Of a stretch of DNA of 32,403 nt, positions 1,856 through 31,147 are shown one piece after another. Position numbers and translations under genes: made by a program. How positions within the stretch are numbered: position 1 is the first letter of the stretch; each line of letters starts with the position of its first letter. The notes under the pieces are model-generated. The model made no database searches. It saw nothing but the letters and a program-made list of their open reading frames with translations, and was not told the origin of the DNA. The stretch is from a virus (lineage: Duplodnaviria > Heunggongvirae > Uroviricota > Caudoviricetes): the IMG/VR virus record IMGVR_UViG_2675903336_000004; one strand, written 5' to 3'.

Positions 1856-1881
<26 letters not shown>
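1336..1881 (+). CDS. nu1: terminase small subunit Nu1
   Basis: 181-aa ORF beginning MEVNKKQLADIFGASIRTIQNWQEQGMPVL, essentially identical to lambda gpNu1 as recalled. Follows cosB and overlaps the start of A. Confidence 0.97.
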
Positions 1882-4901
<3,020 letters not shown>

Positions 4902-4978
4902 AACCCTTGCTGCGTCTGGAATGTCGTTTTCCATGCTTTTGATGACCGTTCATCACCCTTCCAGTTTTTCGCGGTTTT

Positions 4979-5031
4979 GTGTATTGCAATGTGTATTGCA
5001 AATTGGCGATCGGGATGGGTGTGTATTGCAA
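4979..5031 (+). repeat. integrase arm-type direct repeats GTGTATTGCAA x3 (attL arm, upstream of int)
   Basis: Exact 11-mers at 4979-4989, 4991-5001 and 5021-5031. Two more copies in the same orientation sit at 15645-15667, just inside attR. Confidence 0.7.
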
Positions 5032-5049
5032 ATCTCTTGAGGGCTTTTA

Positions 5050-6291
5050 ATGGCTATTGAAAACAAACTCAGTGACAAACTGTTAAAGAGTCTTGTCGGA
5101 AAACGGCAGGACAAACAAAAAACAATAGCGGATGGGCGCGGGTTGTCTGTGCGTGTAAGCATGGTTGGGGGGATCAGCTTTGTTTTTTACTATCGTCTTG
5201 GTGGCAGGGAATCCCCTCCGGTATGGCTTACACTTGGTCGCTATCCTGACATGTCTCTTGCAACGGCCAGGCGCATGCGTGATCAGTGCCGTGAATGGCT
5301 GGCTGAAAATCTGGACCCCCGCAGGCAAATAAAACTTGCTGCCGAAAAAACTATGCAACCAGTGACCGTAAGGGATGCGCTGTTTTACTGGTACGACAAT
5401 CACGCCACAACAGCCAGAAAAGAGCATGAATATTTAATAAAACGATTTGAAAAGCATATCTTCCCCTATATCGGTGATATGGCTATAGAACAGTGCAAAT
5501 TACACACATGGCTTACCGTCTTTGACAGGATCAAAAAAAATGCGCCTGTTATGTCTGGTGCAATTTTTCTTGATATCAAACAGGCGTTGCGTTTTTGTCG
5601 CGTCAGGCAATACATCGCGTGCGATCCCTTTGGAGATATTAACGTAAGTTATGTCGGGCGCTCATCCGGTATAAGGGATCGCGTTCTTAATATCAATGAA
5701 ACCGCTGATGTATGGTCTTATGCTTACGGTAATAATTTGCTAACTCTGTCATCAATATATAACCGAAGAATAATGGTTATCTGCCTGGTGTTTGGTTGCC
5801 GACAGCAGGAGGCGAGGCTATCCACCTGGGACGAATGGGATTTAAAAAACTGGGTATGGACAGTCCCAAAAGAGCACAGCAAAAACAAGGAGGCTATAGT
5901 AAGGCCTGTTCCTGACGGAATAAAACAATGGATCGTTAATCTTTACGCAGAAACAAAAAATCGCGGTTATGTTGTCGGTTGTGCTTTGCAAAGGGCGACA
6001 ATAACAGGGGCTGCAAACAGAATATGCAGGCGTCTTGGTCATGATACTAATGGCTTGTGGTGCATACATGATTTCAGGCGCACATTTTCCACTACGCTTA
6101 ATGATATGGGGGCGGATCCTTATATTGTCGAACTTCTTTTAGGTCATAAAGTGAAAGGGGTTGCTGGTGTTTACAATAAAAGCAGGCATATAAAGAAAAA
6201 ACTTGAGGTGCTTAATATGTGGGTTAATTACCTTAATACGATAGCAGGATTTAACAACAACGTTATCGAGCTTAATAAAGAGGTGGTGTGA
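5050..6291 (+). CDS. int: tyrosine-type site-specific integrase (P4-like family)
   Basis: 413-aa ORF with the C-terminal catalytic signature HDFRRTFSTTLNDMGADPYIVELLLGH...VYNKS (His-x-x-Arg and Tyr). Located immediately inside attL, preceded by the arm repeats. Confidence 0.9.
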   Translation: MAIENKLSDKLLKSLVGKRQDKQKTIADGRGLSVRVSMVGGISFVFYYRLGGRESPPVWLTLGRYPDMSLATARRMRDQCREWLAENLDPRRQIKLAAEKTMQPVTVRDALFYWYDNHATTARKEHEYLIKRFEKHIFPYIGDMAIEQCKLHTWLTVFDRIKKNAPVMSGAIFLDIKQALRFCRVRQYIACDPFGDINVSYVGRSSGIRDRVLNINETADVWSYAYGNNLLTLSSIYNRRIMVICLVFGCRQQEARLSTWDEWDLKNWVWTVPKEHSKNKEAIVRPVPDGIKQWIVNLYAETKNRGYVVGCALQRATITGAANRICRRLGHDTNGLWCIHDFRRTFSTTLNDMGADPYIVELLLGHKVKGVAGVYNKSRHIKKKLEVLNMWVNYLNTIAGFNNNVIELNKEVV

Positions 6292-6292
6292 T

Positions 6293-6550
6293 ATGACAAT
6301 TTATTCTCTTGTTGATGAAAACGATTTGCGCACAATGAAGGACATTGATCGGTTCATTCGTGAAAAAGAGTGCATAGCACTTACCACGCTGGCAAACTCA
6401 ACACGCTGGAAAATGGAGCAGGCAGGTAAATTCCCGCGACGTATCAAGATCGGTGAACGTGCTGCAGGGTATCGACTTTCAGAGGTTCAGGCATGGATCC
6501 GTGGTGAGTGGCATCCTGGATGGAAACCTGGAAAAACAAAACAGCAATAA
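6293..6550 (+). CDS. alpA: AlpA-family transcriptional regulator / putative excisionase
   Basis: 85-aa ORF directly downstream of int. The segment IREKECIALTTLANSTRWKMEQAGKFPRRIKIGERAAGYRLSEVQAWI fits the AlpA/Xis-type HTH pattern. Confidence 0.8.
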   Translation: MTIYSLVDENDLRTMKDIDRFIREKECIALTTLANSTRWKMEQAGKFPRRIKIGERAAGYRLSEVQAWIRGEWHPGWKPGKTKQQ

Positions 6551-6563
6551 CCAGTAAATAATG

Positions 6564-6586
6564 CCCCTCATCACGAGGGGTTTTTT
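6564..6586 (+). terminator. rho-independent terminator after alpA
   Basis: Hairpin CCCCTC-atcac-GAGGGG followed by TTTTTT. Confidence 0.75.
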
Positions 6587-6606
6587 GTCTATAAGGTAAA
6601 AACGCG

Positions 6607-7185
6607 ATGAATAAAAATATTGCCGTGACGGGCAAGGGGTACGCTCGTCCAGTGAAAAAATTCTGCGATATTCGTGATCTCGTCGTTCTGCGCTTTGATA
6701 GTGTGAACGTTCGTGTGGTGTATCTGAACGGCGATCCGTGGTTTGTTGCAAAAGATGTTTGTGCTGCGCTGGAACTAACCAATTCGCGTACGGCGTTGCA
6801 GATGCTTGATGATGATGAAAAGGGAGTAAATTTAACTTACACCCCAGGAGGAAATCAGAATATGAGAATTATCTCTGAGTCAGGTTTCTACAAACTAATA
6901 GCCCGCAGCCGCAAAGCAACGACGCCTGGCACATTTGCTCATCGTTTCAGTAACTGGGTATTCAGAAATGTGATACCAGGTATCAGAAAAACGGGGACTT
7001 ATGGTATCCCGTGGGGTGCATTACAGGATTTTTCCCGCCGTAAAGAGCAATATCAAATAAGTGCCAGCGAGAAGGGGAGGGAGCTACAGGCATGTAAGCG
7101 CAAAAAGCGTGAGCTGGAGGAAGAAGAAAAAACGCTGATACGTGAATATCAGCCTGAGTTTTACTTTGGTAACCGCATTCAGTGA
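6607..7185 (+). CDS. Bro-N domain protein (antirepressor-like)
   Basis: 192-aa ORF. The segment DPWFVAKDVCAALELTNSRTALQMLDDDEKG...ISESGFYKLIARSRKATTPGTFAHRFSNWVFRNVIPGIRKTGTY matches the Bro-N/KilA-N type domain, with a charged coiled-coil-like C-terminus. Confidence 0.65.
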   Translation: MNKNIAVTGKGYARPVKKFCDIRDLVVLRFDSVNVRVVYLNGDPWFVAKDVCAALELTNSRTALQMLDDDEKGVNLTYTPGGNQNMRIISESGFYKLIARSRKATTPGTFAHRFSNWVFRNVIPGIRKTGTYGIPWGALQDFSRRKEQYQISASEKGRELQACKRKKRELEEEEKTLIREYQPEFYFGNRIQ

Positions 7186-7215
7186 CAAAACAAAGGCGAC
7201 CGCAAAAGGGTCGCC
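7186..7215 (-). terminator. putative rho-independent terminator of the leftward operon (possibly bidirectional)
   Basis: Hairpin GGCGACC-gcaaaag-GGTCGCC at 7195-7215, preceded on the + strand by aaaacaaa, which reads as a T-run after the stem on the - strand. Confidence 0.5.
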
Positions 7216-7281
7216 AGTGGGAACAAGGGAAAACAAAAGCATCACCAACAATGCCACATTTGCGGCTGGTGGGCAATGTGA

Positions 7282-7461
7282 TCAGTCAGATTTGGTTCGT
7301 TCCAAGGTTTGCAACGAGAGCTTTTTCCTGTGCTCTTTAAGGAATTTCTCAAGAGCAAACGAACAAGGTGCGAATCTTTCTGATTCATGTTCATGCGCTA
7401 TATTTTTGCGTCGTCTCTTACGAGTTGGTGATGGTGTTTTGGTTGATTCTGTGTCGCTCAT
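7282..7461 (-). CDS. small basic hypothetical protein (59 aa; below the ORF-track threshold)
   Basis: Manual translation of the reverse strand gives MSDTESTKTPSPTRKRRRKNIAHEHESERFAPCSFALEKFLKEHRKKLSLQTLERTKSD. It has an AGGA-containing RBS about 7 nt upstream and lies between orf101 and the terminator on the same strand. Confidence 0.35.
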   Translation of the reverse strand: MSDTESTKTPSPTRKRRRKNIAHEHESERFAPCSFALEKFLKEHRKKLSLQTLERTKSD

Positions 7462-7518
7462 GGTGCTGTCCTGTAAAGCAATGCGCCTGCGTTCCTCAAA
7501 CTATGGCGCTGATATTGG

Positions 7519-7824
7519 CTATTCATGCTCTTTGACCTTGCGTCGCTGGAGTTCTTCACGCGCGACGGTGACGAGTTGCCCGATCTCCTCGGCTGCTTTG
7601 ATGCCGATTTGTTCGACCTTAGCCAGGGCATCCAGTGACGACACAAGGGGATTTTCTCCGCTGCCTTCTGCTTGGCGGCGGGCTATTTCTCCGCGCATGG
7701 CGGTTACGATAAATCCGGCATTGCTTTCACCGTCCAGCTTAACGGATTCCATCCCTTGCATAACATCTAGTGGGACTCTGACAGTTGTCAGTTGTGATTT
7801 TGCGTTTTTGTTAGCCGTTGCCAT
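7519..7824 (-). CDS. putative transcriptional regulator (101 aa), divergent from the island early operon
   Basis: Complete ORF with an AGGAG RBS 8 nt upstream. It is transcribed away from the operator-containing intergenic region, and its position mirrors satellite/phage repressor genes. Fold assignment is tentative. Confidence 0.45.
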   Translation of the reverse strand: MATANKNAKSQLTTVRVPLDVMQGMESVKLDGESNAGFIVTAMRGEIARRQAEGSGENPLVSSLDALAKVEQIGIKAAEEIGQLVTVAREELQRRKVKEHE

Positions 7825-7885
7825 TTCTGAAACTCCTAATCATCGGTGTGTTTCAGTATACACAAAAAAAGAAATACAAAAAGCC

Positions 7886-7923
7886 TTGACGTGTGTTTCA
7901 TGCGCTCATAACATGAAACACAC
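7886..7923 (+). promoter_or_regulatory. rightward promoter (TTGACG, 17 bp, TAACAT) overlapped by a 12-bp perfect inverted-repeat operator
   Basis: GTGTGTTTCATG (7891-7902), 9-bp spacer, CATGAAACACAC (7912-7923). A third half-site GTGTGTTTCA is at 7846-7855. The -35 TTGACG is at 7886-7891 and the -10 TAACAT at 7909-7914. Confidence 0.6.
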
Positions 7924-8014
7924 CGAAAGGATTGTTGAAATACAAAGAGCAACGCCCCGCAGTGCTGGGAACACATACGGGGCGTCTAACCAACAACGTA
8001 AACTAGGAGCCGTT

Positions 8015-8212
8015 ATGGTTGCTGTAAATCATATACCACACCTTGTACACACACAAACGGCCTTTGTGTGGCGTTTTCTGGCACTGAGTGCCGGAGAATC
8101 TCAAATCATCCACGTAACCGCCTGGACGGAACGCGAAGCGCGTAGCCGTTGCCCGTCCGGTTGTGTTGCTGTATTCGCTGCAAAAATCCGCCAGGGAGTG
8201 AGTCATGCTTAA
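8015..8212 (+). CDS. small protein (65 aa), possibly Icd-like cell-division-inhibitor family
   Basis: ATG at 8015 with an AGGAG RBS 5 nt upstream; it shares frame and stop with the tail of the spurious long ORF 7142..8212. First gene after the operator-controlled promoter. Family assignment is from memory of a VWRFLAL-type motif and is tentative. Confidence 0.4.
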   Translation: MVAVNHIPHLVHTQTAFVWRFLALSAGESQIIHVTAWTEREARSRCPSGCVAVFAAKIRQGVSHA

Positions 8213-8390
8213 AACCTTCCGTGTATTTGCCCGAGCTGTTAACCCAATAGGCCACACAATTGGTATCGCTCAGAATGTGAAGGCTGTTAATGTTCAGACG
8301 GCTATTGCTGCGGTGAGAAGCGAATCATCAGAATATGGCTTATCACAAGTCATTATTTCAGCAGTGTATGAATTAAAAGAGGTGCATTAA
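8205..8390 (+). CDS. hypothetical protein (61 aa)
   Basis: Complete ORF whose start overlaps the stop of the preceding gene, indicating a translationally coupled operon. Confidence 0.4.
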   Translation: MLKTFRVFARAVNPIGHTIGIAQNVKAVNVQTAIAAVRSESSEYGLSQVIISAVYELKEVH

Positions 8391-8581
8391 TGCAGGAAAT
8401 TACATTACACGAAGCCGCTGAACGTGCGCACCAGACAGAAATTATTTGCCGCCTTCTTGAGGTATACCCGAACAAAATTACAGATGCTGATATATCCGCA
8501 CTGGCGAGCCTACTGGCGCGTCTTTCGGGAAGTGTCGCTAGTTTTTTGATTGAGGAAGAAAGTAAGCTGGTGGGGGATTAA
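8390..8581 (+). CDS. hypothetical protein (63 aa)
   Basis: Complete ORF with a TAATG stop/start overlap with the previous ORF. Confidence 0.4.
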   Translation: MQEITLHEAAERAHQTEIICRLLEVYPNKITDADISALASLLARLSGSVASFLIEEESKLVGD

Positions 8582-8803
8582 ATGAATACAGAACGGGAAG
8601 TCTTTTTTAAATTGTTAGCATGTGCAGAAAGTTCATTAACTTTAAATAATTCAGCAAAAGCAATATTAAATATGTGGCTTGATTGCATAAATGACAATGA
8701 AGATGCAAATATTGCTTATGGCCTGTTGTCACTTATTGATGAATCAGCAGAAAAACTCAATGACGCAATAAATAGTGCCCTGCTATCAAATAAGTCGAGT
8801 TAA
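8582..8803 (+). CDS. hypothetical protein (73 aa, AT-rich)
   Basis: Complete ORF abutting the previous stop. Codon composition is AT-rich. Confidence 0.4.
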   Translation: MNTEREVFFKLLACAESSLTLNNSAKAILNMWLDCINDNEDANIAYGLLSLIDESAEKLNDAINSALLSNKSS

Positions 8804-8820
8804 GTCGAGGAATAAATAAT

Positions 8821-9120
8821 ATGGAAATGAAAAATTCTGGCTTTATTGCCAGCGGCCCCGCTCGACCTGAATTTATGAACGGCGATATTTACCGCGATAA
8901 ATACGGCGGCACGGTAACGATTAAAGGCGTGGCAGAACGGCGCATCACTTACCGCCGTGAGGGGTATAGCTATGACTGCGTGATGCCTGTTTATCAGTTC
9001 CGGCGTGATTTTTCCCTGGTATATGCCGCACCCCGCAGTAAGCCCATCAGCAGGGAAAAAGCGTGGGGAAATATCCAGAAAATGAAAACCATGATTAACG
9101 GATTCAGAGGTAAAAAATGA
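8821..9120 (+). CDS. hypothetical protein (99 aa)
   Basis: Complete ORF with an ATGA overlap with the pri-rep start. Confidence 0.45.
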   Translation: MEMKNSGFIASGPARPEFMNGDIYRDKYGGTVTIKGVAERRITYRREGYSYDCVMPVYQFRRDFSLVYAAPRSKPISREKAWGNIQKMKTMINGFRGKK

Positions 9121-10871
9121 AACTGGCACCGAACGTAAAACAGCAGTCACGCGGCATAAAACACAAAGGAACAGAAGTCATTATTTTTGCGGGTAGTGAT
9201 GCCTGGGCACACGCGAAACAATGGCAGGAACATGATGCGCGTATGGCCGGAGATAATGAGCCTCCTGTGTGGCTTGGGGAGCAGCAGCTATCCGAACTGG
9301 ATAATCTGCAAATTGTGCCGGAAGGCCGAAAATCAGCACGCATATACAGGGCCGGATATCTTGCGCCTGTAATGATAAAGACGATTGGTCAGAAGCTGGC
9401 GGCAGCAGGCGTACAGGATGCAAATTTTTATCCTGAGGGTATGCACGGCCAGGAGGTGCAGAACTGGCGCGAATATCTGGCCCGTGAACGCCAGAATCTT
9501 TCTGATGGTCTGGTCATTGAGCTTCCGGTAAAGCAAAAGGCGCAACTTTCGCAGATGGCGGACAGTGAGCGCGCGCAGTTGCTTGCCGATCGCTTTGATG
9601 GCGTTTGCGTACATCCTGAAAGTGAAATCGTTCACGTATGGCGCGGCGGGGTATGGTGTCCGGTCAGCACAATGGAACTTAGCCGCGAAATGGTGGCGAT
9701 CTATTCAGAGCACAGGGCCACTTTCAGCAAGCGCGTAATCAATAACGCCGTGGAAGCGTTAAAAGTTATTGCCGAACCAATGGGCGAGCCGTCTGGCGAT
9801 TTGCTGCCGTTCGCCAATGGTGCGCTTGACCTGAAAACGGGGGAATTTTCCCCGCACACGCCGGAGAACTGGATCACCACGCACAACGGCATTGAGTACA
9901 CGCCACCAGCACCAGGGGAGAACATCCGCGATAACGCGCCAAACTTTCATAAATGGCTTGAGCACGCAGCCGGAAAAGACCCGCGCAAGATGATGCGTAT
10001 ATGTGCCGCGCTGTACATGATTATGGCGAACCGGTACGACTGGCAGATGTTTATTGAGGCCACCGGAGACGGCGGGAGCGGTAAAAGTACATTCACACAC
10101 ATAGCCAGCCTTCTGGCAGGGAAACAGAACACGGTAAGCGCTGAAATGACATCGCTTGATGATGCTGGTGGACGTGCGCAGGTTGTCGGGAGTCGTCTTA
10201 TCGTCCTGGCTGACCAGCCGAAATATACAGGCGAAGGAACGGGCATCAAGAAAATCACAGGCGGCGACCCCGTGGAAATTAACCCGAAATATGAAAAGCG
10301 TTTCACGGCGGTAATCAGGGCGGTGGTGCTGGCGACCAACAACAACCCGATGATATTCACCGAACGGGCCGGAGGTGTGGCACGTCGTCGCGTGATTTTC
10401 CGTTTCGACAATATCGTCAGTGAGGCCGAAAAAGACAGGGAGCTACCGGAAAAGATTGCGGCTGAAATCCCCGTTATTATCCGCCGATTGCTGGCGAACT
10501 TTACCGACCCTGAGAAGGCACGGGCTTTACTACTGGAACAGCGTGACGGTGATGAAGCACTGGCAATAAAGCAACAGACGGATCCGGTTATTGAGTTTTG
10601 CCAGTTCCTGAATTTTCTGGAGGAAGCGCGCGGCCTGATGATGGGTGGCGGTGGTGATTCAGTGAAGTACACGACCAGGAACAGCCTTTACCGCGTCTAT
10701 CTGGCGTTTATGGCATACGCGGGCAGGAGCAAACCGCTAAACGTGGCTGAGTTCAGCAAGGCCATGAAGCCAGCGGCGAAAGTTTACGGGCATGAATATA
10801 TTACGCGAAAAGTTAAGGGAGTAACGCAGACCAACGCAATTACAACAGACGATTGCGACGCGTTTTTATAA
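9117..10871 (+). CDS. primase/helicase replication initiator (pri-rep; P4-alpha/D5-like NTPase)
   Basis: 584-aa ORF with Walker A GDGGSGKST and a Walker B-like RLIVLADQP. Size, domain order and position (upstream of an iteron array) are as in PICI pri-rep genes. Confidence 0.85.
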   Translation: MKLAPNVKQQSRGIKHKGTEVIIFAGSDAWAHAKQWQEHDARMAGDNEPPVWLGEQQLSELDNLQIVPEGRKSARIYRAGYLAPVMIKTIGQKLAAAGVQDANFYPEGMHGQEVQNWREYLARERQNLSDGLVIELPVKQKAQLSQMADSERAQLLADRFDGVCVHPESEIVHVWRGGVWCPVSTMELSREMVAIYSEHRATFSKRVINNAVEALKVIAEPMGEPSGDLLPFANGALDLKTGEFSPHTPENWITTHNGIEYTPPAPGENIRDNAPNFHKWLEHAAGKDPRKMMRICAALYMIMANRYDWQMFIEATGDGGSGKSTFTHIASLLAGKQNTVSAEMTSLDDAGGRAQVVGSRLIVLADQPKYTGEGTGIKKITGGDPVEINPKYEKRFTAVIRAVVLATNNNPMIFTERAGGVARRRVIFRFDNIVSEAEKDRELPEKIAAEIPVIIRRLLANFTDPEKARALLLEQRDGDEALAIKQQTDPVIEFCQFLNFLEEARGLMMGGGGDSVKYTTRNSLYRVYLAFMAYAGRSKPLNVAEFSKAMKPAAKVYGHEYITRKVKGVTQTNAITTDDCDAFL

Positions 10872-10886
10872 TTTTTTGTAAAAGCC

Positions 10887-11105
10887 ATCTACCCCATCTA
10901 CCTGAACAAAATAAACGCATATTATTCAACATGATAAGTGGGTATAGGGCTAGGTAGAAGGCTAATAAAAGCTCTCTACCTCTTCTACCTGATTTTATCA
11001 GTTTCAGGTAGCAGGGTAGACGGCAGGTAGAGGAGTCAAAAAGCTATCTACCCGCTGAAAGCCGCGCCATTACTGACATGATGAGCATTCGGGTAGATGG
11101 GTAGA
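10887..11105. repeat. iteron array / putative replication origin (GGTAGA/TCTACC motifs, about 12 copies in both orientations)
   Basis: ATCTACC at 10887 and 10896; GGTAGA at 10953; TCTACC at 10975 and 10984; GGTAG(A) at 11007, 11015 and 11026; ATCTACC at 11046; GGTAGA at 11092 and 11100. Lies immediately 3' of pri-rep. Confidence 0.65.
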
Positions 11106-11218
11106 GGGGGGGAGGCACAACTAAAAACTTTTTAAACGAGGGGGGGTGAAAATAAATGCGCATACATAAAAATCACTTAACAAACATGCCAGCCGAAAAC
11201 ATGAATCAGGGGCGACAA

Positions 11219-11470
11219 ATGACCAAAATTCGCAGAGACAGAACACAGGCAAAATATAAAGCGTTAGACATGACAGAGCTTTCCTTAAAGGTGGCAATCA
11301 AAGCGATAGACCACCACACACGGGCAGGATACGCGAAGGAACATCCCGACCTGATAAGCGCATTCATGACCACAGCAGCGGCAAACTTTGCCACGCTGAC
11401 AGAACGGGAGATTGCCGAAGCGGAACAGGTGACAACCATCAATGTTAAAACCGGAGAGCAGACAGCATGA
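11219..11470 (+). CDS. hypothetical protein (83 aa from the ATG at 11219; track ORF begins at 11156)
   Basis: ATG at 11219 has an AGGGG RBS 6 nt upstream. Stop overlaps the ssb start (ATGA). Confidence 0.45.
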   Translation: MTKIRRDRTQAKYKALDMTELSLKVAIKAIDHHTRAGYAKEHPDLISAFMTTAAANFATLTEREIAEAEQVTTINVKTGEQTA

Positions 11471-11889
11471 CAGCACAGATAGCGGCTTACGGGCGGCTGG
11501 TGGCTGACCCGCAGTTAAAGACCACCAGCAAAGGGACACAAATGGCGATGGCGAGTATGGCGGTTCCCCTGCCGTGCAGCCAGGCAGATGACGGAACGGC
11601 GACGATGTGGTTATCCGTCCTGGCGTTTGGCAGACAGGCCGACGCACTGGCAAAACACCACAAAGGCGAACTGGTGAGCGTGGCGGGTAACATGCAGGTA
11701 AGCCAGTGGACAGGCCAGAACGGCGAAACGCGGCGGGGCTGGCAGGTTATCGCAGACAGCGTAATCAGTGCGCGAACGGCGCGACCGGGCGGCAAAAAAG
11801 GCCAGCAGGGGCAGGCCACTGACGCACTGAACAGGGCAAAACAACAGTCGGGGAATGATGATCCGTACGGCGATAATATACCGTTTTAA
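11467..11889 (+). CDS. ssb: single-stranded DNA-binding protein
   Basis: 140-aa ORF with an OB-fold-like core (MWLSVLAFGRQAD...VSQWTGQNGETRRGWQVIADSV), a Gly/Gln-rich linker and an acidic tail ending DDPYGDNIPF, like the SSB C-terminal DDDIPF tail. Confidence 0.75.
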   Translation: MTAQIAAYGRLVADPQLKTTSKGTQMAMASMAVPLPCSQADDGTATMWLSVLAFGRQADALAKHHKGELVSVAGNMQVSQWTGQNGETRRGWQVIADSVISARTARPGGKKGQQGQATDALNRAKQQSGNDDPYGDNIPF

Positions 11890-12100
11890 ATTCTGCAAAC
11901 AAAAAGATGCCGGAAAAAAATAGATTTTCCGGCATGCTACATAAATCCCGACCAAAGGAAGTAAATACATTAACACGAATTATCAGCACTGAAGTTGTTA
12001 CGGCATATTTTATACAACATTGCACTTGGTTGCATGTATTCGCATAGCAGACATCGGTAATAGAATATATTCACAATTATTTGTAATGAATGTAAAGAGG

Positions 12101-13147
12101 ATGAGTATGGTTGATTTATATTCGCCTACACAGCTTGTGCAGGTGGCTAATGCTGAAGATGTGCAAAAAAAATTAAATGCGTTGTTTACCAGTTTGTTTT
12201 TCACTCGCTCGGTAATGTTTGAATCGAGAGACATTATTCTTGATACGATCGACGATCCAAATATCCCGATCGCGGCGTTTTGCTCTCCTATGGTGGGCAG
12301 TAAAGTTTCACGAGATGAGGGATACGAATCAAAAACAATTCGTCCAGGTTATATGAAGCCGAAAAGCAGCATTGATCCAAATAAGTTAGCTGTGCGCCCT
12401 GCTGGTGTGTCACCTGAGCAATACAATGCTTTTGGGGCGCGTAATATTAAAGTTAAACAGGCGATTGTAAATCAGGCTAAAGCTATTCGTGCACGTATTG
12501 AATGGCTTGCTGTTCAGGCAATCACAACGGGGAAAAATATCATTGAGGGCGATGGTATTGAACGTTATGAGCTGGACTGGAATATAAAACCACAAAATAT
12601 CATCACTCAGTCTGGCGGTACTGAGTGGTCAGGTAAGGATAAAGAAACTTTTGATCCAAATGATGATATTGAGAGCTACGCAGAATTTAGTGAGGGCGTC
12701 ACTAATATCATCATTATGGGTGGTAATGTATGGAAGAAATACCGTTCATTCAGAGCGATAAAAGAGGCTTTGGATACCCGTCGTGGTTCTAATTCCGAAC
12801 TGGAAACGGCCCTTAAAGACCTTGGTGATTCGGTGAGTTTTAAAGGGTATATGGGCGATGTTGCGATTGTTGTTTACAGCGGGCGTTATACCGACGAGGA
12901 CGGAACAGAAAAACATTTCCTTGATCCTGATTTGATGGTGCTTGGCAATACGGCTCTTCAGGGGATTGTCGCCTATGGCGGTATTCAGGATCCGGAGCTA
13001 ATCCGAATGGGGCTGACTAAAGCCGAACTTGCACCGAAAAACTATATTGTGCCTGGTGATCCGGCTATTGAATATGTGCAGACACATTCAGCACCACAGC
13101 CAATACCGGCCCGCATCAATCGTTTTGTTACCGTTCGCATTGGCTAA
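12101..13147 (+). CDS. lambda gpE-like major capsid protein paralog (island-encoded)
   Basis: Alignable by eye along its length to the helper gpE in this window (18230..19255), e.g. ITQSGGTEWSGKDKETFDPNDDIESYA vs ITQSGVTEWSKRDKSTYDPTDDIEAYA, and TRRGSNSELETALKDLG...YMGDVAIVVYSG vs TRRGSHSELETAVKDLG...MYGDVAIVVYSG. Clearly diverged. An alternative start at 12107 has better RBS spacing. Confidence 0.8.
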   Translation: MSMVDLYSPTQLVQVANAEDVQKKLNALFTSLFFTRSVMFESRDIILDTIDDPNIPIAAFCSPMVGSKVSRDEGYESKTIRPGYMKPKSSIDPNKLAVRPAGVSPEQYNAFGARNIKVKQAIVNQAKAIRARIEWLAVQAITTGKNIIEGDGIERYELDWNIKPQNIITQSGGTEWSGKDKETFDPNDDIESYAEFSEGVTNIIIMGGNVWKKYRSFRAIKEALDTRRGSNSELETALKDLGDSVSFKGYMGDVAIVVYSGRYTDEDGTEKHFLDPDLMVLGNTALQGIVAYGGIQDPELIRMGLTKAELAPKNYIVPGDPAIEYVQTHSAPQPIPARINRFVTVRIG

Positions 13148-13156
13148 GGGGGAGCA

Positions 13157-13498
13157 ATGGCTACTCATTACACTGAACTCATGGCTGGCACTGAAGCACT
13201 GGTGACTACGCTGGGGATATTTTCAGCTAATAAAGGGGTAATTCCTGCATTTACGCCACTGATGCAGGAAGATGCAACAGGTGCACTGGTGGTATGGGAT
13301 GGTTCGAGCGTAGGTAAAGCGGTTTATGTTTCCGCTGTACAAATCGACACAGCGAAAAAAACACAGGCACAGGTTTATAAGACAGGTGTTTTAAATGTTG
13401 ATGCTCTGAACTGGCCTGAGTCTGTAAAAGAACTGTCGGCAAAGGTTGCCGCGTTTGTTGGCTCAGGTATTTCTGTTCAGCCGCTGGCTCGTGTGTAA
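13157..13498 (+). CDS. lambda gpD-like head decoration protein paralog (island-encoded)
   Basis: 113-aa ORF with a strong RBS (AAGGGGGAG). Shares the motifs TPLM, WDG, YKxG and WPE with the helper gpD (17842..18174) at equivalent spacing. Gene order is E-like then D-like, the reverse of lambda. Confidence 0.7.
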   Translation: MATHYTELMAGTEALVTTLGIFSANKGVIPAFTPLMQEDATGALVVWDGSSVGKAVYVSAVQIDTAKKTQAQVYKTGVLNVDALNWPESVKELSAKVAAFVGSGISVQPLARV

Positions 13499-13509
13499 AG
13501 GGGGATACA

Positions 13510-13893
13510 ATGCAGAATCATTACAATGACCTTAAGCCAATTGCCGAAATGATGTATCCGGATCCAGCAGTAGAGGAATTAAAGGCTATTGCTGACAAAA
13601 TGCGTTTAAGTGAACGCCTTGTTGATATGAATCAGGTGATGGAACTTACTACCCTTAGCCGTCGCACATTGCTAAACCTTGAGGCTCGCGGAGAGTTCCC
13701 CGAACGCGTACAGGTTACGGAAGGGCGTAAGGCCTGGTATTTAAGTGAAGTGATCGACTGGATAAACAATATTCCTCGATCTTCTGAATATTGCCGCGTA
13801 CCTGTCCCAAAAAAGCCAGATGCGGCGCTATGCCTCAAGATTGAGCGTGTACGTCGCAATGCACGGGATGGTCGCTATAAGTTGATTGGTTGA
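13510..13893 (+). CDS. AlpA-like HTH DNA-binding protein (second AlpA paralog), directly upstream of the island cos
   Basis: 127-aa ORF with RBS AGGGGG. The central segment MELTTLSRRTLLNLEARGEFPERVQVTEGRKAWYLSEVIDWI fits the AlpA/MerR-like HTH pattern and is flanked by N- and C-terminal extensions. Confidence 0.6.
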   Translation: MQNHYNDLKPIAEMMYPDPAVEELKAIADKMRLSERLVDMNQVMELTTLSRRTLLNLEARGEFPERVQVTEGRKAWYLSEVIDWINNIPRSSEYCRVPVPKKPDAALCLKIERVRRNARDGRYKLIG

Positions 13894-13918
13894 TGAAATT
13901 AGGGCCCGTTCTGGCTGG

Positions 13919-13985
13919 CGGGTCCTTTCCGGCGATCCGGTAGGCTACGGGGCGGCGACCTCGCGGGTTTTCGCTATTTATGAGC
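13919..13985 (+). other. cos: island cos site (cosQ-like segment plus canonical lambda cosN GGGCGGCGACCT at 13950-13961)
   Basis: gggtcctttccggcgatccg...ctacgGGGCGGCGACCTcgcgggttttcgctatttatga matches the lambda cos core as recalled. Downstream sequence, where cosB would be, differs from the prophage cosB. Confidence 0.8.
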
Positions 13986-14094
13986 CTTTTTCGGGTGCTG
14001 GTGGTGGTTTTGTTGTTCGCTCTATCTCTATGAATAAAAAGGAAAAGATAAAGCCAATACACCAACCTGAAACATTACTTAAGTGGGGATATTG

Positions 14095-14637
14095 ATGAAA
14101 TCGCACCTGATGAACAAAAAAAACATGGCGCAAAGCTGCCGTGTAAGTGCGACAGCGTTCGACAAGTGGGGAGTGACTCCCGTTGAACGTAAAGGCCGCG
14201 AGGCGTTTTATGATGTTGCCAGCGTAATAGACAATCGGGTTAGCAATGCAATTAACCAGATTACAGACGACAAAGGCGAGATTGATGATGATGAACTCCT
14301 ACGAGTCAGGATCAGATTGCTGACAGCACAGGCAGAGGCGCAGGAGCTTAAAAACGAGCGCGAACGCGGCGACGTTATTGATACAGCGTTTTGTATATAC
14401 GTGCTTTCAAAATTGGCGAGTCAGATTTCTTCAATCATGGACAGCCTGCCGCTTGCCATGACAAGGAAGTTTCCCGACATGAAGCCGTCTATGCTGGATG
14501 GACTGAAAAAAGAAGTTATCAGAGCCTGTAACGCATGCGCAAAACTTGACGAAAACATACCGCTGATGCTGTCCGATTATCTGATGGAAACTGCCGGAAA
14601 CGTACCGGATAAGTTGCAGCCGAATAAAGATAAGTAA
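14095..14637 (+). CDS. Nu1-like terminase small subunit (island-encoded; diverged N-terminal DNA-binding domain)
   Basis: The C-terminal two-thirds align with helper Nu1 (LTAQAEAQELKNERERGDVIDTAFCIYVLSKLASQISSIMDSLPLAMTRKFPDM vs LTRAQADAQELKNARDSAEVVETAFCTFVLSRIAGEIASILDGIPLSVQRRFPEL). The N-terminal about 60 aa are diverged. ATG at 14095 has a GTGGGG RBS; the track ORF starts at GTG 14083. Confidence 0.85.
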   Translation: MKSHLMNKKNMAQSCRVSATAFDKWGVTPVERKGREAFYDVASVIDNRVSNAINQITDDKGEIDDDELLRVRIRLLTAQAEAQELKNERERGDVIDTAFCIYVLSKLASQISSIMDSLPLAMTRKFPDMKPSMLDGLKKEVIRACNACAKLDENIPLMLSDYLMETAGNVPDKLQPNKDK

Positions 14638-14648
14638 CGTAGTACGCT

Positions 14649-14930
14649 ATGACTGAATCCGAAATACTGCGATTAATCCGCCGTGCTTGTGGAATCAGCA
14701 AGCAGCATGACGAACAGGCCACGCAGCCGGACAGCGTGACCGCAGATAATTATGTGCGTGTAGTGGCTGAGGTGATGCGCCGTGACGGTATTGAGCTTAA
14801 CGGCGTGGATATGCGCAACATACGAACAAGAGTCCTTGAGTTGCTGGCATATCGTCGCCGTTCTCAACAACGGAGGGAGAGCGCGAAAAATACTTACCAG
14901 TGGAAGAAGCCGGAACGATTGCGGCGGTAA
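14649..14930 (+). CDS. hypothetical protein (93 aa, Arg-rich C-terminus)
   Basis: Complete ORF immediately downstream of the island terS. No recognisable motif. Confidence 0.4.
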   Translation: MTESEILRLIRRACGISKQHDEQATQPDSVTADNYVRVVAEVMRRDGIELNGVDMRNIRTRVLELLAYRRRSQQRRESAKNTYQWKKPERLRR

Positions 14931-14945
14931 CTTGCTGATATTCCC

Positions 14946-15156
14946 GATAACGCAAAATTGCGCTGGCTGACTTGTTGCATTGCAAAAAGTTAAGCAGGAA
15001 GGCACGGCCTGTAAGATGGGATGCAGTAAGTAGTTCAAGGCTACCTTGTGCTGGCACGCACAGTTAAGCCGTCGGTGCTGGATATCCCCCACTGGGGGAA
15101 AAGCTGGCTACATCCCTCACATCTGAGGACTGATAACGCGACATTGCGCTGGCTGG
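14946..15156 (+). repeat. pair of 24-bp direct repeats GATAACGC(A/G)A(A/C)ATTGCGCTGGCTG, each followed by a short palindrome
   Basis: Copies at 14946-14969 and 15133-15156 match at 22 of 24 positions. Palindromes CGCAAAATTGCG and GTGCAAAATTGCAC lie within or next to them. Confidence 0.6.
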
Positions 15157-15180
15157 CAAAGTGCAAAATTGCACGATGGC

Positions 15181-15342
15181 CTAACCCATTGATTATTTCG
15201 AAAACCTGCAATGCAGGAAATCGGGGAAGTAAGCCTAAGCTATTGATTGTTTCGAAAACCCCCATTGGGGGATGTCGGGAAAGTAAGACTAACCCATTGA
15301 TTCTTCCACAATCCTCAATTTGAGGAGGCCGGAACGTCTACA
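15181..15342 (+). repeat. three tandem 54-bp repeat units, each with a different perfect hairpin (covarying stems)
   Basis: Units start at 15181, 15235 and 15289, each with CTAA(C/G)C(C/T)ATTGATT. Hairpins are CCTGCA-a-TGCAGG (15205-15217), CCCCCA-ttg-GGGG (15259-15271, stem of 4-5 bp) and CCTCAA-t-TTGAGG (15313-15325). Related hairpins lie upstream at 15086-15098 and 15115-15128. Confidence 0.7.
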
Positions 15343-15644
15343 TAGCTGCATCGCCGTAATGATGATTCAGCCCACCAGCCAAATCAGCACAGCAACGACA
15401 GAATAGCCCGACACAGAAAAACCACGAATATGGGGTTTTTGTTATGACATGGTCATGATGACCACTCATACAAAACAGGTAAAGCCCACCAGCCTGATTA
15501 AAGGTTAACCGGAAAAAAGCCAGGTATCCAATCTCGATATGGGGATCCCTATATCGACATTAACGCCCACTAAAACTGTGCATATATGCATAGAAAAAGC
15601 ATCCACCAGCTTTATGACGGATGCCGCTCATCTTATAAATAATC

Positions 15645-15667
15645 GTGTATTGCAGTGTGTATTGCGA
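15645..15667 (+). repeat. integrase arm-type repeats (GTGTATTGCAG, GTGTATTGCGA) at the attR arm
   Basis: Two copies in the same orientation as the three attL copies, about 75 bp inside the attR core. Confidence 0.65.
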
Positions 15668-15739
15668 CTCCTTTAAACGATAGGTCTGAGCATTCGTAAT
15701 GTACTGTTTTTAAATTTTATTTTTTCCTGTCTTTTCATA

Positions 15740-15747
15740 AAGGCGAT
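15740..15747. repeat. attR core (AAGGCGAT), right copy of the direct repeat
   Basis: Identical 8-mer to 4842-4849. Lambda B coding sequence resumes immediately to its right. Confidence 0.7.
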
Positions 15748-16316
15748 GTATGCCGCCACCATTGAAAGTGAGCTGGATACGCAGTCAGCGATGGATTTTA
15801 TTCTGGGCGCGAACAGTAAGGAGCAGCGGGAAAGGCTGACGGGCTGGATTGGTGAAATTGCCGCGTATTACGCCGCAGCACCGGTCCGTCTGGGAGGCGC
15901 AAAAGTGCCGCACCTGATGCCGGGGGACTCACTGAACCTGCAGACGGCTCAGGACACGGATAACGGCTACTCCGTGTTTGAGCAGTCACTGTTGCGGTAT
16001 ATCGCTGCCGGGCTGGGTGTCTCGTATGAGCAACTTTCCCGGAATTACGCCCAGATGAGCTACTCCACGGCACGGGCCAGTGCGAACGAGTCGTGGGCGT
16101 ACTTTATGGGGCGGCGAAAATTCGTCGCATCCCGTCAGGCGAGCCAGATGTTTCTGTGCTGGCTGGAAGAGGCCATCGTTCGCCGCGTGGTGACGTTACC
16201 TTCAAAAGCGCGCTTCAGCTTTCAGGAAGCCCGCAGTGCCTGGGGGAACTGCGACTGGATAGGCTCCGGTCGTATGGCCATCGATGGTCTGAAAGAAGTT
16301 CAGGAAGCGGTGATGC
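15746..16316 (+). CDS. B: portal protein B, 3' fragment (from native Met276; truncated by masked gap at 16317)
   Basis: MYAATIESELDTQSAMDFILGANSKEQRERLTGWIGEIAAYYAAAPVRLGG... matches the lambda gpB C-terminal half. The ATG at 15746 overlaps the attR core. Confidence 0.9.
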
Positions 16317-16584
16317 NNNNNNNNNNNNNNNNNNNNNNNNNNNNNNNNNNNNNNNNNNNNNNNNNNNNNNNNNNNNNNNNNNNNNNNNNNNNNNNNNNNN
16401 NNNNNNNNNNNNNNNNNNNNNNNNNNNNNNNNNNNNNNNNNNNNNNNNNNNNNNNNNNNNNNNNNNNNNNNNNNNNNNNNNNNNNNNNNNNNNNNNNNNN
16501 NNNNNNNNNNNNNNNNNNNNNNNNNNNNNNNNNNNNNNNNNNNNNNNNNNNNNNNNNNNNNNNNNNNNNNNNNNNNNNNNNNNN

Positions 16585-17841: not shown

Positions 17842-18174
17842 ATGACGAGCAAAGAAACCTTTACCCATTACCAGCCGCTGGGCAATAGTGACCCGGCTCA
17901 TACCGCAACCGCGCCCGGCGGATTGAGTGCGAAAGCGCCTGCAATGACCCCGCTGATGCTGGACACCTCCACCCGTAAGCTGGTTGCGTGGGATGGCACC
18001 ACCGACGGTGCTGCCGTTGGCATTCTTGCGGTTGCTGCTGACCAGACCAGCACCACACTGACGTTCTACAAGTCCGGCACGTTCCGTTATGAGGATGTGC
18101 TCTGGCCGGAGGCTGCCAGCGACGAGACGAAAAAACGGACCGTGTTTGCCGGAACGGCAATCAGCATCGTTTAA
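17842..18174 (+). CDS. D: head decoration protein D
   Basis: [27 protein letters not shown]... matches lambda gpD (110 aa). RBS AAGGGA. Confidence 0.95.
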
Positions 18175-18229: not shown

Positions 18230-19255
18230 ATGTCGATGTACACAACCGCCCAGCTGCTGGCGGCAAATGAGCAGAAATTTAAGTTTGATCCGCTGTTTCT
18301 GCGTCTCTTTTTCCGTGAGAGCTATCCCTTCACTACGGAGAAAGTCTATCTCTCACAAATTCCGGGACTGGTAAACATGGCGCTGTACGTTTCGCCGATT
18401 GTTTCCGGTGAGGTTATCCGTTCCCGTGGCGGCTCCACCTCTGAATTTACGCCGGGATATGTCAAACCCAAGCATGAGGTGAATCCGCAGATGACCCTGC
18501 GTCGCCTGCCGGATGAAGATCCGCAGAATCTGGCGGACCCGGCTTACCGCCGCCGTCGCATCATCATGCAGAACATGCGTGACGAAGAGCTGGCCATTGC
18601 TCAGGTCGAAGAGATGCAGGCAGTTTCTGCCGTGCTCAAGGGCAAATACACCATGACCGGTGAAGCCTTCGATCCGGTTGAGGTGGATATGGGCCGCAGT
18701 GCGGCGAACAACATCACACAGTCCGGCGTCACGGAGTGGAGCAAGCGTGACAAGTCCACGTATGACCCGACCGACGATATCGAAGCCTACGCGCTGAACG
18801 CCAGCGGTGTGGTGAATATCATCGTGTTTGACCCGAAAGGCTGGGCGCTGTTCCGTTCCTTCAAAGCCGTCAAGGAGAAGCTGGATACCCGTCGCGGCTC
18901 TCATTCCGAGCTGGAGACAGCGGTAAAAGACCTGGGCAAAGCGGTGTCCTATAAGGGAATGTATGGCGATGTGGCCATCGTCGTGTATTCCGGACAGTAC
19001 GTGGAAAACGGCGTCAAAAAGAACTTCCTGCCGGACAACACGATGGTGCTGGGGAACACTCAGGCTCGCGGTCTGCGCACCTATGGCTGCATTCAGGATG
19101 CGGACGCACAGCGCGAAGGCATTAACGCTTCTGCCCGTTACCCGAAAAACTGGGTGACCACCGGCGATCCGGCGCGTGAGTTCACCATGATTCAGTCAGC
19201 ACCGCTGATGCTGCTGGCTGATCCTGATGAGTTCGTGTCCGTTCAACTGGCGTAA
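18230..19255 (+). CDS. E: major capsid protein E
   Basis: MSMYTTAQLLAANEQKFKFDPLFLRLFFRESYPF... to ...DEFVSVQLA matches lambda gpE (341 aa). The track ORF has a spurious 9-codon upstream extension. Confidence 0.95.
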   Translation: MSMYTTAQLLAANEQKFKFDPLFLRLFFRESYPFTTEKVYLSQIPGLVNMALYVSPIVSGEVIRSRGGSTSEFTPGYVKPKHEVNPQMTLRRLPDEDPQNLADPAYRRRRIIMQNMRDEELAIAQVEEMQAVSAVLKGKYTMTGEAFDPVEVDMGRSAANNITQSGVTEWSKRDKSTYDPTDDIEAYALNASGVVNIIVFDPKGWALFRSFKAVKEKLDTRRGSHSELETAVKDLGKAVSYKGMYGDVAIVVYSGQYVENGVKKNFLPDNTMVLGNTQARGLRTYGCIQDADAQREGINASARYPKNWVTTGDPAREFTMIQSAPLMLLADPDEFVSVQLA

Positions 19256-30600: not shown

Positions 30601-31147
30601 CGCTAAAAATGCGGATATCAGTGGCAGTGTGAATGCGAACGCCGGGACGCTCAACAATGTCACGGTAAATGAAAACTGTACGATTAAGGGCATGCTGGAG
30701 GCGACTCAGGTCAGAGGTGACTTCGTTAAAGCTGTATCCAAATCATTTCCGAAACAGGCTGGTACGTGGGGTAACACGGAAACACCAAACGGGACGGTTA
30801 CAGTCACCATAAGCGATGATCATAACTTTGACCGCCAGATTATTATTCCGCCCATTATTTTTAACGGTATAGCGTATGACGATCCGGGGAGCGGAAATAA
30901 CCCAGGAGGCACGCGATACACGGGTTATGGTTTTGAAGTTCGCAAAAACGGCGTATTAATCGCATCCAGAGAAACTAAAGGTGCCATTCCCGGTAGTTAC
31001 AGTGCAGTTATTGATATGCCTAGTGGTGGTGGTAGCGTCACTCTGGAGTTTAAGATTTTCCAGAAAGGCAATCAGGGGGCAGGCAATATCACCGACTGTA
31101 CGGTGATTGTGACCAAAAAAGCGGCTTCCGGCATCAGTATTCGTTGA
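27666..31147 (+). CDS. J: central tail fiber / host specificity protein J (contains masked gap 29731-29983; C-terminal region diverged from lambda)
   Basis: [34 protein letters not shown]... matches lambda gpJ over about 680 residues before the gap. After the gap ...[22 protein letters not shown]... continues to the stop at 31147. The last about 150 aa differ from the lambda J receptor-binding region as recalled. Confidence 0.9.

Follow-up and report, generated by a model that had tools for sequence, protein, structure and literature searches.

Capsid- and decoration-type genes of a phage-inducible chromosomal island embedded in the portal gene of a lambda-like prophage

What purpose does a capsid gene serve in a phage satellite that has no portal, protease or scaffold of its own? 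The question has been open since 2018 for the Gram-negative phage-inducible chromosomal islands (PICIs), most of which possess a capsid gene that is dispensable in laboratory transfer. It is raised again by a 32,403-nucleotide stretch of caudoviral DNA (IMG/VR record IMGVR_UViG_2675903336_000004; “the window” denotes this whole stretch), in which a PICI, hereafter the island, is embedded in a lambda-like prophage, hereafter the helper, and holds a matching decoration gene next to its capsid gene. The two genes, termed E-like (12107-13147) and D-like (13157-13498), lie on the + strand in the late module of the island. The prophage has its own cement (decoration) gene, gpD, at 17842-18174 and its own shell (capsid) gene, gpE, at 18230-19255, both also on the + strand. 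A model that read the sequence alone (the original prediction) had described two gpE-type and two gpD-type genes, those of the island being heavily substituted, and had proposed that the satellite proteins could build a smaller or satellite-specific capsid with the portal, protease and scaffold of the helper. The description stands, including the E-then-D gene order, which is the reverse of the D-then-E order of lambda.

E-like is, as judged by sequence comparison, a full-length homolog of the lambda gpE-type major capsid protein of the HK97 fold. It aligns over its full length with the helper E protein at 42% identity (E = 4e-85, for the 348 residues counted from 12101) and with lambda gpE, which differs from the helper protein at 4 of 341 residues, likewise at 42% full-length identity (9e-78). 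Pfam Phage_cap_E (PF03864) matches residues 14-345 at 2.9e-41, with 142 bits against a cutoff of 22.9. The start had been placed at 12101; the ATG at 12107, giving 346 residues, is more likely because AAGAGG stands 6 nt upstream of it and RefSeq uses the same start. E-like matches PDB entry 3bqw at 1e-121. This structure is deposited as “putative capsid protein of prophage, E. coli CFT073”, and wherever both alignments show residues its sequence is that of c1499, the capsid protein of EcCICFT073, the prototype PICI of E. coli; c1499 itself is 55% identical to E-like. In the AlphaFold2 model (predicted template modelling score, pTM, 0.80), which contains a long helix at residues 108-141, E-like carries the complete HK97 fold, spine helix included, and Foldseek aligns the model at a template modelling (TM) score of 0.91 with 3bqw and of 0.86-0.88 with lambda gpE.

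The D-like protein (113 residues) is 37% identical to helper D (E = 5e-17) and matches the Pfam family HDPD (PF02924) at 4.1e-15, with 56.4 bits against a cutoff of 29.1. Its best relative of known structure is the head decoration protein 1td0 (3.8e-16), and lambda gpD (1c5e, 7vii) is found at ~8e-12. By these matches D-like is a homolog of the head decoration proteins of the lambda gpD and phage 21 SHP type. It shares 54% identity with c1500 of EcCICFT073, and its homologs across the Enterobacterales, at 49-99% identity, have the same taxonomic spread as those of E-like.

The original prediction spoke of paralogs of the helper's own genes, which is misleading. A search of 5.8 billion proteins with E-like gave a bimodal result: a group of 343-355 residues at 50-100% identity, then a gap, then gpE-type proteins of 338-350 residues at 44% or less. 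The first group comes from Escherichia, Cedecea, Scandinavium, Serratia, Edwardsiella, Salmonella and Lelliottia, and its allele group is present in ~395 of 5,426 complete E. coli genomes. In the alignment of this satellite clade, whose members were kept at ≥50% identity to the E-like protein of the window, within-clade identity has a minimum of 44% and a median of 56%. No member exceeds 47% identity to helper E, one chimera excepted, and the best phage match to E-like among 50,697 deposited phage genome records is lambda gpE, at 42%. Apart from clade-specific indels of 3 and 1 residues in the N-terminal region, the satellite clade is colinear with phage gpE. These values and the distinct clade indicate that the island genes are not recent copies of the helper's genes, and a recent duplication or capture was discarded on the same grounds; the E and D genes of the island are instead an old satellite-specific lineage that travels with satellites.

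The genomic contexts agree with the clade. Nine loci of the 50-100% group were inspected and all nine are PICIs with a backbone of int, alpA, pri, E-like and D-like. D-like directly follows E-like in every satellite examined, namely those of Serratia, Edwardsiella, Lelliottia, Cedecea, E. coli (at several sites) and CFT073, and the PICIs of Salmonella also have the E-then-D pair. The insertion sites vary: the Serratia and Lelliottia PICIs adjoin fis, the Edwardsiella island lies within a portal gene, the Cedecea island and islands of E. coli lie within capsid gene E, and of the other E. coli islands one is chromosomal and others are located between roxA and phoQ. Two of the islands embedded in capsid gene E (L009 and L010) have E-like and D-like proteins 85% and 96% identical, respectively, to the pair in the window. 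In the Lelliottia fis-PICI an S49 peptidase, a lambda C-like protease/scaffold (L007:11409-12752), directly follows E-like and D-like, so that some satellites of this lineage hold a larger share of the head module.

One further locus departs from the separation of the clades. A capsid gene on a metagenome scaffold (P0043, L016:2801-3829) is of helper type E over nt 1-758 (94.6%) and of island type over nt 624-1029 (97.5%); upstream of it lie a portal fragment, an S49 peptidase and a D gene, all of helper type, and downstream a D-like gene of island type. Either helper E and satellite E-like have undergone homologous recombination here, or the chimera arose in assembly. In the window, the longest exact match between helper E and E-like is 13 nt.

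Both genes are under purifying selection. The ratio of non-synonymous to synonymous substitution rates (dN/dS), calculated by the method of Nei and Gojobori between the alleles of the window and the 85%-identical E allele with its D partner, is 0.088 for E-like (dS 1.16) and 0.079 for D-like (dS 0.26). Mean column conservation is 0.74 in the satellite clade and 0.76 in the phage gpE clade, and the per-site profiles correlate (r = 0.55), which suggests similar structural constraints in both; 24 positions are invariant in both clades, and satellite E-like proteins have clade-specific substitutions at otherwise conserved positions. To judge from the sequences, the E and D genes of the island are almost certainly functional. 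In CFT073, c1498-c1501 (L015:5462-7496) are transcribed, with higher levels at 37 °C than at 23 °C without phage induction (2025 study, PMC12890032). The temperature response hints at expression independent of the helper.

The existence of such genes is not new, contrary to what the original prediction had implied: the feature is published for the prototype PICI, this type of island has been catalogued, and feature and mechanistic idea both have precedents, in reports on EcCICFT073, PmCI172, the Gram-negative PICIs at large and SaPIbov5. Fillol-Salom et al. (2018) reported the capsid protein c1499 and the head decoration protein c1500 in EcCICFT073 (PMC6092414), and PmCI172 combines a capsid homolog with small capsids (PMC6092414; reviewed by Dokland, PMC6893505). 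A major capsid gene occurs in 21 of 29 reference Gram-negative PICIs, for which capture of late genes and a possible back-up role were suggested (PMC10111431). In SaPIbov5, an established case, the capsid homolog Ccm co-assembles at the pentons and changes prolate heads into small isometric ones (PMC8569155; Carpena 2016; Hawkins 2021). New here are the ancient satellite lineage under strong purifying selection, the invariable E-then-D order and the finding that no sequenced phage exceeds 42% identity, which together make a real structural or competitive role likely.

The island also appears equipped to direct the packaging of its own DNA. Its cos (13915..13985, + strand) contains an exact lambda cosN, GGGCGGCGACCT, at 13950-13961, between an AlpA-like gene and the small terminase (TerS) gene. 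The flanks of this site are conserved with the cos of the helper and of lambda, and the sequence diverges just downstream, at the position of cosB; EcCICFT073 has the same layout and an identical cosN. The cosN of the helper is a variant, GGGCGGAAGGCG, at 1146-1157, as opposed to the canonical one of the island. The variant is a natural allele, since E. coli strain 582 has it too; the related composites VL46 and CFSAN029787 have the canonical cosN at both sites. The canonical cosN and the Nu1-like TerS immediately downstream of D-like lay outside the original prediction, which did not consider the Ccm precedent either. The 3′ non-coding tail of the island (14600-15760) had been a candidate cos region and was rejected, as it has no similarity to the helper cos and cos sits upstream.

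The TerS gene (14095..14637, + strand; the open reading frame, ORF, opens at a GTG at 14083) encodes a Nu1-type protein of 180 residues. It matches Pfam Phage_Nu1 in its C-terminal part at 3.5e-24 and phrog_57 (terminase small subunit) at 3.4e-51. Its identity to helper Nu1 is 37%, with the similarity concentrated in the C-terminal half while the N-terminal part diverges. The C-terminal half of lambda Nu1 is the part that binds gpA. The protein has no similarity to RppA of EcCICFT073 and no match in the PDB, hence it does not correspond to RppC (6HLK) either, and the AlpA-like protein, considered as an Rpp candidate, matches an AlpA structure only. Since the TerS is a full-length Nu1 homolog without similarity to RppA, the island probably redirects helper gpA with this protein of its own. 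The location of TerS in the place of the unrelated RppA suggests, on the sequence evidence, a different route of redirection, in which a satellite TerS acts with the helper large terminase subunit (TerL) on a cos satellite.

The size of the island sets the expectation for the particle. The original estimate of about 11 kb is confirmed by the 10,898 bp between the attachment (att) cores, so multiples of three, four and five units amount to 32.7 kb, 43.6 kb (~90% of the 48.5 kb of lambda) and 54.5 kb. Lambda packages ~75-105% of its genome length. Three or five units fall outside these limits, and a tetramer in a normal head is therefore the simplest expectation.

Based on these observations, we tentatively favour, with a confidence somewhat short of even, a reading in which E-like and D-like are non-essential shell and cement proteins that enter heads nucleated by the portal, protease and scaffold of the helper. 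Both proteins would be made late, by read-through of the helper late operon and/or from an island promoter. E-like would form mosaic or satellite-made heads upon the portal, protease and scaffold of the helper, while D-like would cement the regions of the lattice that are built of E-like. Island DNA would be cut at its own cos by island TerS with helper gpA, and a normal head of triangulation number (T) 7 would take up the 43.6-kb concatemer of four units. The pair would act as an accessory, a shell that the satellite brings along, supplementing or competing with helper gpE and gpD, with transfer possible in its absence. Homology, the complete fold, the distinct clade, purifying selection, conserved synteny, cos and TerS are observed in the sequence, whereas the timing of expression, incorporation into particles and any effect on head size or helper yield are inferred. 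Lambda gpD finds its binding sites only where gpE subunits have assembled. With this requirement, the strongest argument that E-like forms a lattice in vivo is that a cognate D is strictly conserved along with it.

Several points weigh against this reading. In EcCICFT073, deletion of c1499 or c1500 did not relieve interference with lambda (PMC6092414), the authors found no phenotype when c1499 was replaced by cat (PMC6092414), and the island is packaged as multimers in phage-sized capsids with lambda or phi80 (PMC6092414, PMC6739421, PMC6893505). As the island is devoid of a scaffold, the compatibility of E-like with Nu3, C and B of the helper is an assumption. The resident prophage may also not be a competent helper, because its tape-measure gene is damaged in some related genomes.

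The same observations bear on the alternatives. A Ccm-type redirection of head size or shape, in which E-like, possibly at the pentons, and D-like would give heads of smaller T number that hold one or two units of 10.9 kb and exclude the helper genome, is rather unlikely. A unit of 10.9 kb is far below the capacity of the T=7 head of lambda, the E-D module is conserved and under selection, Ccm at the pentons alters capsid geometry in SaPIbov5 (PMC8569155), and PmCI172, with its capsid homolog, makes small capsids (PMC6092414, PMC6893505). However, EcCICFT073 has the same E-D module, phage-sized capsids and a capsid gene without detected phenotype, so that the closest relative studied speaks against the small or satellite-specific capsid of the original prediction, which keeps some probability with natural helpers. 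Four units fit a normal lambda head, which removes the need for small ones, and it is not obvious why a role confined to pentons should call for a decoration protein of its own. A broader proposal is that classical Gram-negative PICIs with their natural lambdoid helpers build a satellite shell and cement on helper portal, protease and scaffold, perhaps with a smaller T number, which would then have been overlooked because EcCICFT073 with lambda and phi80 was the only laboratory system. We consider it unlikely; if true, the classical PICIs would be “half capsid-forming” intermediates between classical PICIs and capsid-forming PICIs (cfPICIs). Quite unlikely, too, is a role in interference, with E-like and D-like as dominant-negative proteins that poison or divert helper procapsid assembly and cut helper yield. 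Interference with the helper is general among PICIs, a diverged subunit still able to bind helper partners could plausibly poison assembly, and altered interfaces would be in keeping with the substitutions that the clade shows where the sequence is otherwise conserved. Yet lambda did not regain plaque formation on EcCICFT073 strains upon loss of c1499 or c1500, and Rpp explains the interference there (interference and packaging specificity were attributed to it in 2019, PMC6739421), conservation extends over the whole protein as in genuine capsids, and poisoning needs no cognate decoration protein.

Tommasini et al. raised the idea that captured late genes serve as back-up copies replacing the helper gene that the embedded island interrupts, and the commonest site of helper-embedded PICIs is indeed helper gene E, where the islands carry an 85%-identical E-like gene (L009, L010; PMC10111431). 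The island in the window, however, interrupts B rather than E and does not encode a portal; the same module occurs in PICIs that sit in the chromosome without disrupting a phage gene (L003, L007, L011, CFT073), and no phage E known so far comes close to the clade, which is hence not a recent capture. For the island we find this explanation improbable, and functions outside all the readings considered here receive an equally small share of our confidence. That the genes are decaying, functionless relics of captured phage genes would fit the missing phenotype in EcCICFT073, but a dN/dS of ~0.08-0.09 led us to reject a pseudogene, synteny is strict, and the ORFs are intact and full-length in at least seven genera at 50-100% identity; this explanation is very improbable indeed. 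For particle proteomics and cryo-electron microscopy, the E-D pair offers a defined target.

Comparison with known systems places the island among the classical PICIs. EcCICFT073 has the same succession of int, alpA, pri, the gene for single-stranded DNA-binding protein (SSB), E-like, D-like, cos, a packaging protein and a 93-residue protein, with the same E-then-D order. It differs in its chromosomal roxA-phoQ site, as opposed to the helper portal gene, in its alleles, and in redirection by RppA where the island has a full Nu1-type TerS; the island in addition has an AlpA-like gene after D-like. Helper-embedded PICIs (HE-PICIs) such as 11capE share the co-oriented position in a lambda-type late gene, the doubled TGTATTGC motif, the four-zone organisation and a like late module, but the target of the capE type is capsid gene E, in contrast to portal gene B after the codon for ...SAIVKA, and a capE-type integrase is only 54% identical. 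Ccm of SaPIbov5 is likewise a satellite-encoded HK97-fold homolog of the helper capsid protein in a cos-packaged element without portal, protease and scaffold genes. It belongs to an unrelated sequence family and host, its role is demonstrated whereas no phenotype is demonstrated for a PICI E-like protein, and the abstract of PMC8569155 describes no decoration partner, which the island has in D-like. The cfPICIs (EcCIEDL933; Alqurainy 2023) also join a PICI backbone to phage-derived head genes that form satellite-specific clades. They encode capsid, protease, portal, connectors, TerS, TerL and HNH proteins, whereas the island encodes only E, D and TerS: Pfam, PHROG and RefSeq annotation revealed no portal, protease, connector, TerL or HNH family among its genes. 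As originally predicted, a complete head and packaging set is thus not found and the island is distinct from cfPICIs; the predicted absence of portal, protease and scaffold holds as well, with no family match among the island ORFs and RefSeq annotation of 99.9%-identical islands in agreement. P4, with Psu and Sid, is a further satellite encoding its own capsid-associated protein. Psu acts as a decoration protein; the P4 proteins are unrelated to gpD and gpE, and P4 uses only the capsid protein of its helper.

Among the Gram-negative PICIs the island belongs to the helper-embedded type, its site being portal gene B of the lambda-like prophage. It spans 4842..15747 (+ strand) between att cores of the 8-bp direct repeat AAGGCGAT at the two junctions (4842-4849 and 15740-15747). 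Of the features by which Fillol-Salom et al. (2018) defined Gram-negative PICIs, it shows the + strand int/alpA/pri backbone, a length of 10.9 kb, within the ~10-20 kb of the class, a putative origin of replication (ori) 3′ of pri, and its own cosN with a divergent cosB followed by a Nu1-like TerS. The HE-PICI features are its position inside a co-oriented helper late gene, the 8-bp block of att identity and the doubled motif on both arms. The doubled motif tgTGTATTGCantgTGTATTGCa on both arms of attP is a trait of HE-PICIs (Tommasini 2023, PMC10111431); in the island the doubled TGTATTGC lies at 4978-5000 and 15644-15666, as published for HE-PICIs, with a spacing of ~80-100 bp in one arm and ~130 bp in the other, depending on how the centre is defined, compared to published values of 81 and 132 bp (PMC10111431). 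Tommasini, Mageeney and Williams mapped 491 HE-PICIs to 14 sites in lambda-type late genes, 97% of them in A, B, C or E (PMC10111431). In pairwise comparison the integrase is 88% identical to that of the Edwardsiella island at the B site (L005), whereas its identity to an HE-PICI integrase of the capE type is 54%. The search of the window for tRNA genes gave none, and the island is therefore not a tRNA-targeting one. The whole island is present in 53 complete E. coli genomes, and the attL (portal-island) junction in 64.

The remainder of the window is the late region of the lambda-like prophage, with Nu1 (1336-1881), A (1856-3820), W, portal B, C/Nu3, D, E, FI and the tail genes up to J, and contains five masked runs of N. 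The 5′ fragment of portal gene B (4020..4849, + strand) has a translation that follows lambda gpB as far as ...SAIVKA, beyond which the frame continues in the island. The 3′ fragment (15740..16519, + strand) resumes with MYAATIES at ~15748 and has a masked run at 16317-16584 inside it. The split gene is labelled “phage portal protein, incomplete” by RefSeq in related genomes, and its arrangement implies that a functional portal can only be obtained once the island excises from gene B. In two E. coli genomes the host element of the island is a DLP12-like lambdoid prophage. Around a masked run at 29731-29983, gene J of the helper is broken into two ORFs that overlap and differ in frame (27666-30026 and 30023-31147); the annotation of the related genome VL46 has an intact J, and the split may therefore be an artefact of masking.

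The island is co-oriented with the helper late operon, and all of its genes but one are on the + strand. The integration zone (5050..6550) consists of a tyrosine integrase (5050-6291, +) and AlpA (6293-6550, +). It is followed by a Bro-N protein (6607-7185), the YlcI/YnfO-family gene on the − strand (7519-7824), and an Icd-like gene with small ORFs between 7824 and 8821. A + strand ORF of 356 residues in this Bro/immunity zone (7142-8212) is probably spurious, RefSeq having instead the minus-strand YlcI/YnfO gene and small + strand genes. The replication zone (8821..11889) begins with DUF4222 (8821-9120, +) and includes the primase/helicase gene (9117-10871, +; Pfam D5_N, DUF5906 and Pox_D5), an 83-residue ORF (+) and SSB (11467-11889, +; Pfam SSB). 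Directly 3′ of the primase gene and upstream of the 83-residue ORF lie iteron-like direct and inverted repeats built on CTACC/GGTAG (~10879-11110), a putative ori that is consistent in sequence with a PICI replication origin.

In the late module, D-like is followed by a second AlpA-family helix-turn-helix gene (13510..13893, +), which matches Pfam Phage_AlpA at 1.3e-08 and the AlpA family regulator of PDB 8c3t at 8e-11, and whose position after D-like is kept in five other islands (L003, L008-L010 and L014). The module ends, beyond cos and TerS, with a gene for 93 residues (14649..14930, +) that matches phrog_1561 (function unknown) and is 76% identical to the gene product in the same position of EcCICFT073. 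In a scan for promoters and terminators, promoter-like sites were no more numerous around the late module than in shuffled sequence; a weak one lies 5′ of E-like at 12039-12066 and does not count as evidence of function. Compared with Rfam at gathering thresholds, the whole window gave no match, and neither P4 CI/C4 nor isrK-type RNA was detected. Between the last gene of the island and attR, three tandem repeats of 54 nt occupy 15179-15340, the second and third copies being 80% and 61% identical to the first, and each copy contains one short palindrome (CCTGCAATGCAGG, CCCCCATTGGGGG and CCTCAATTTGAGG).

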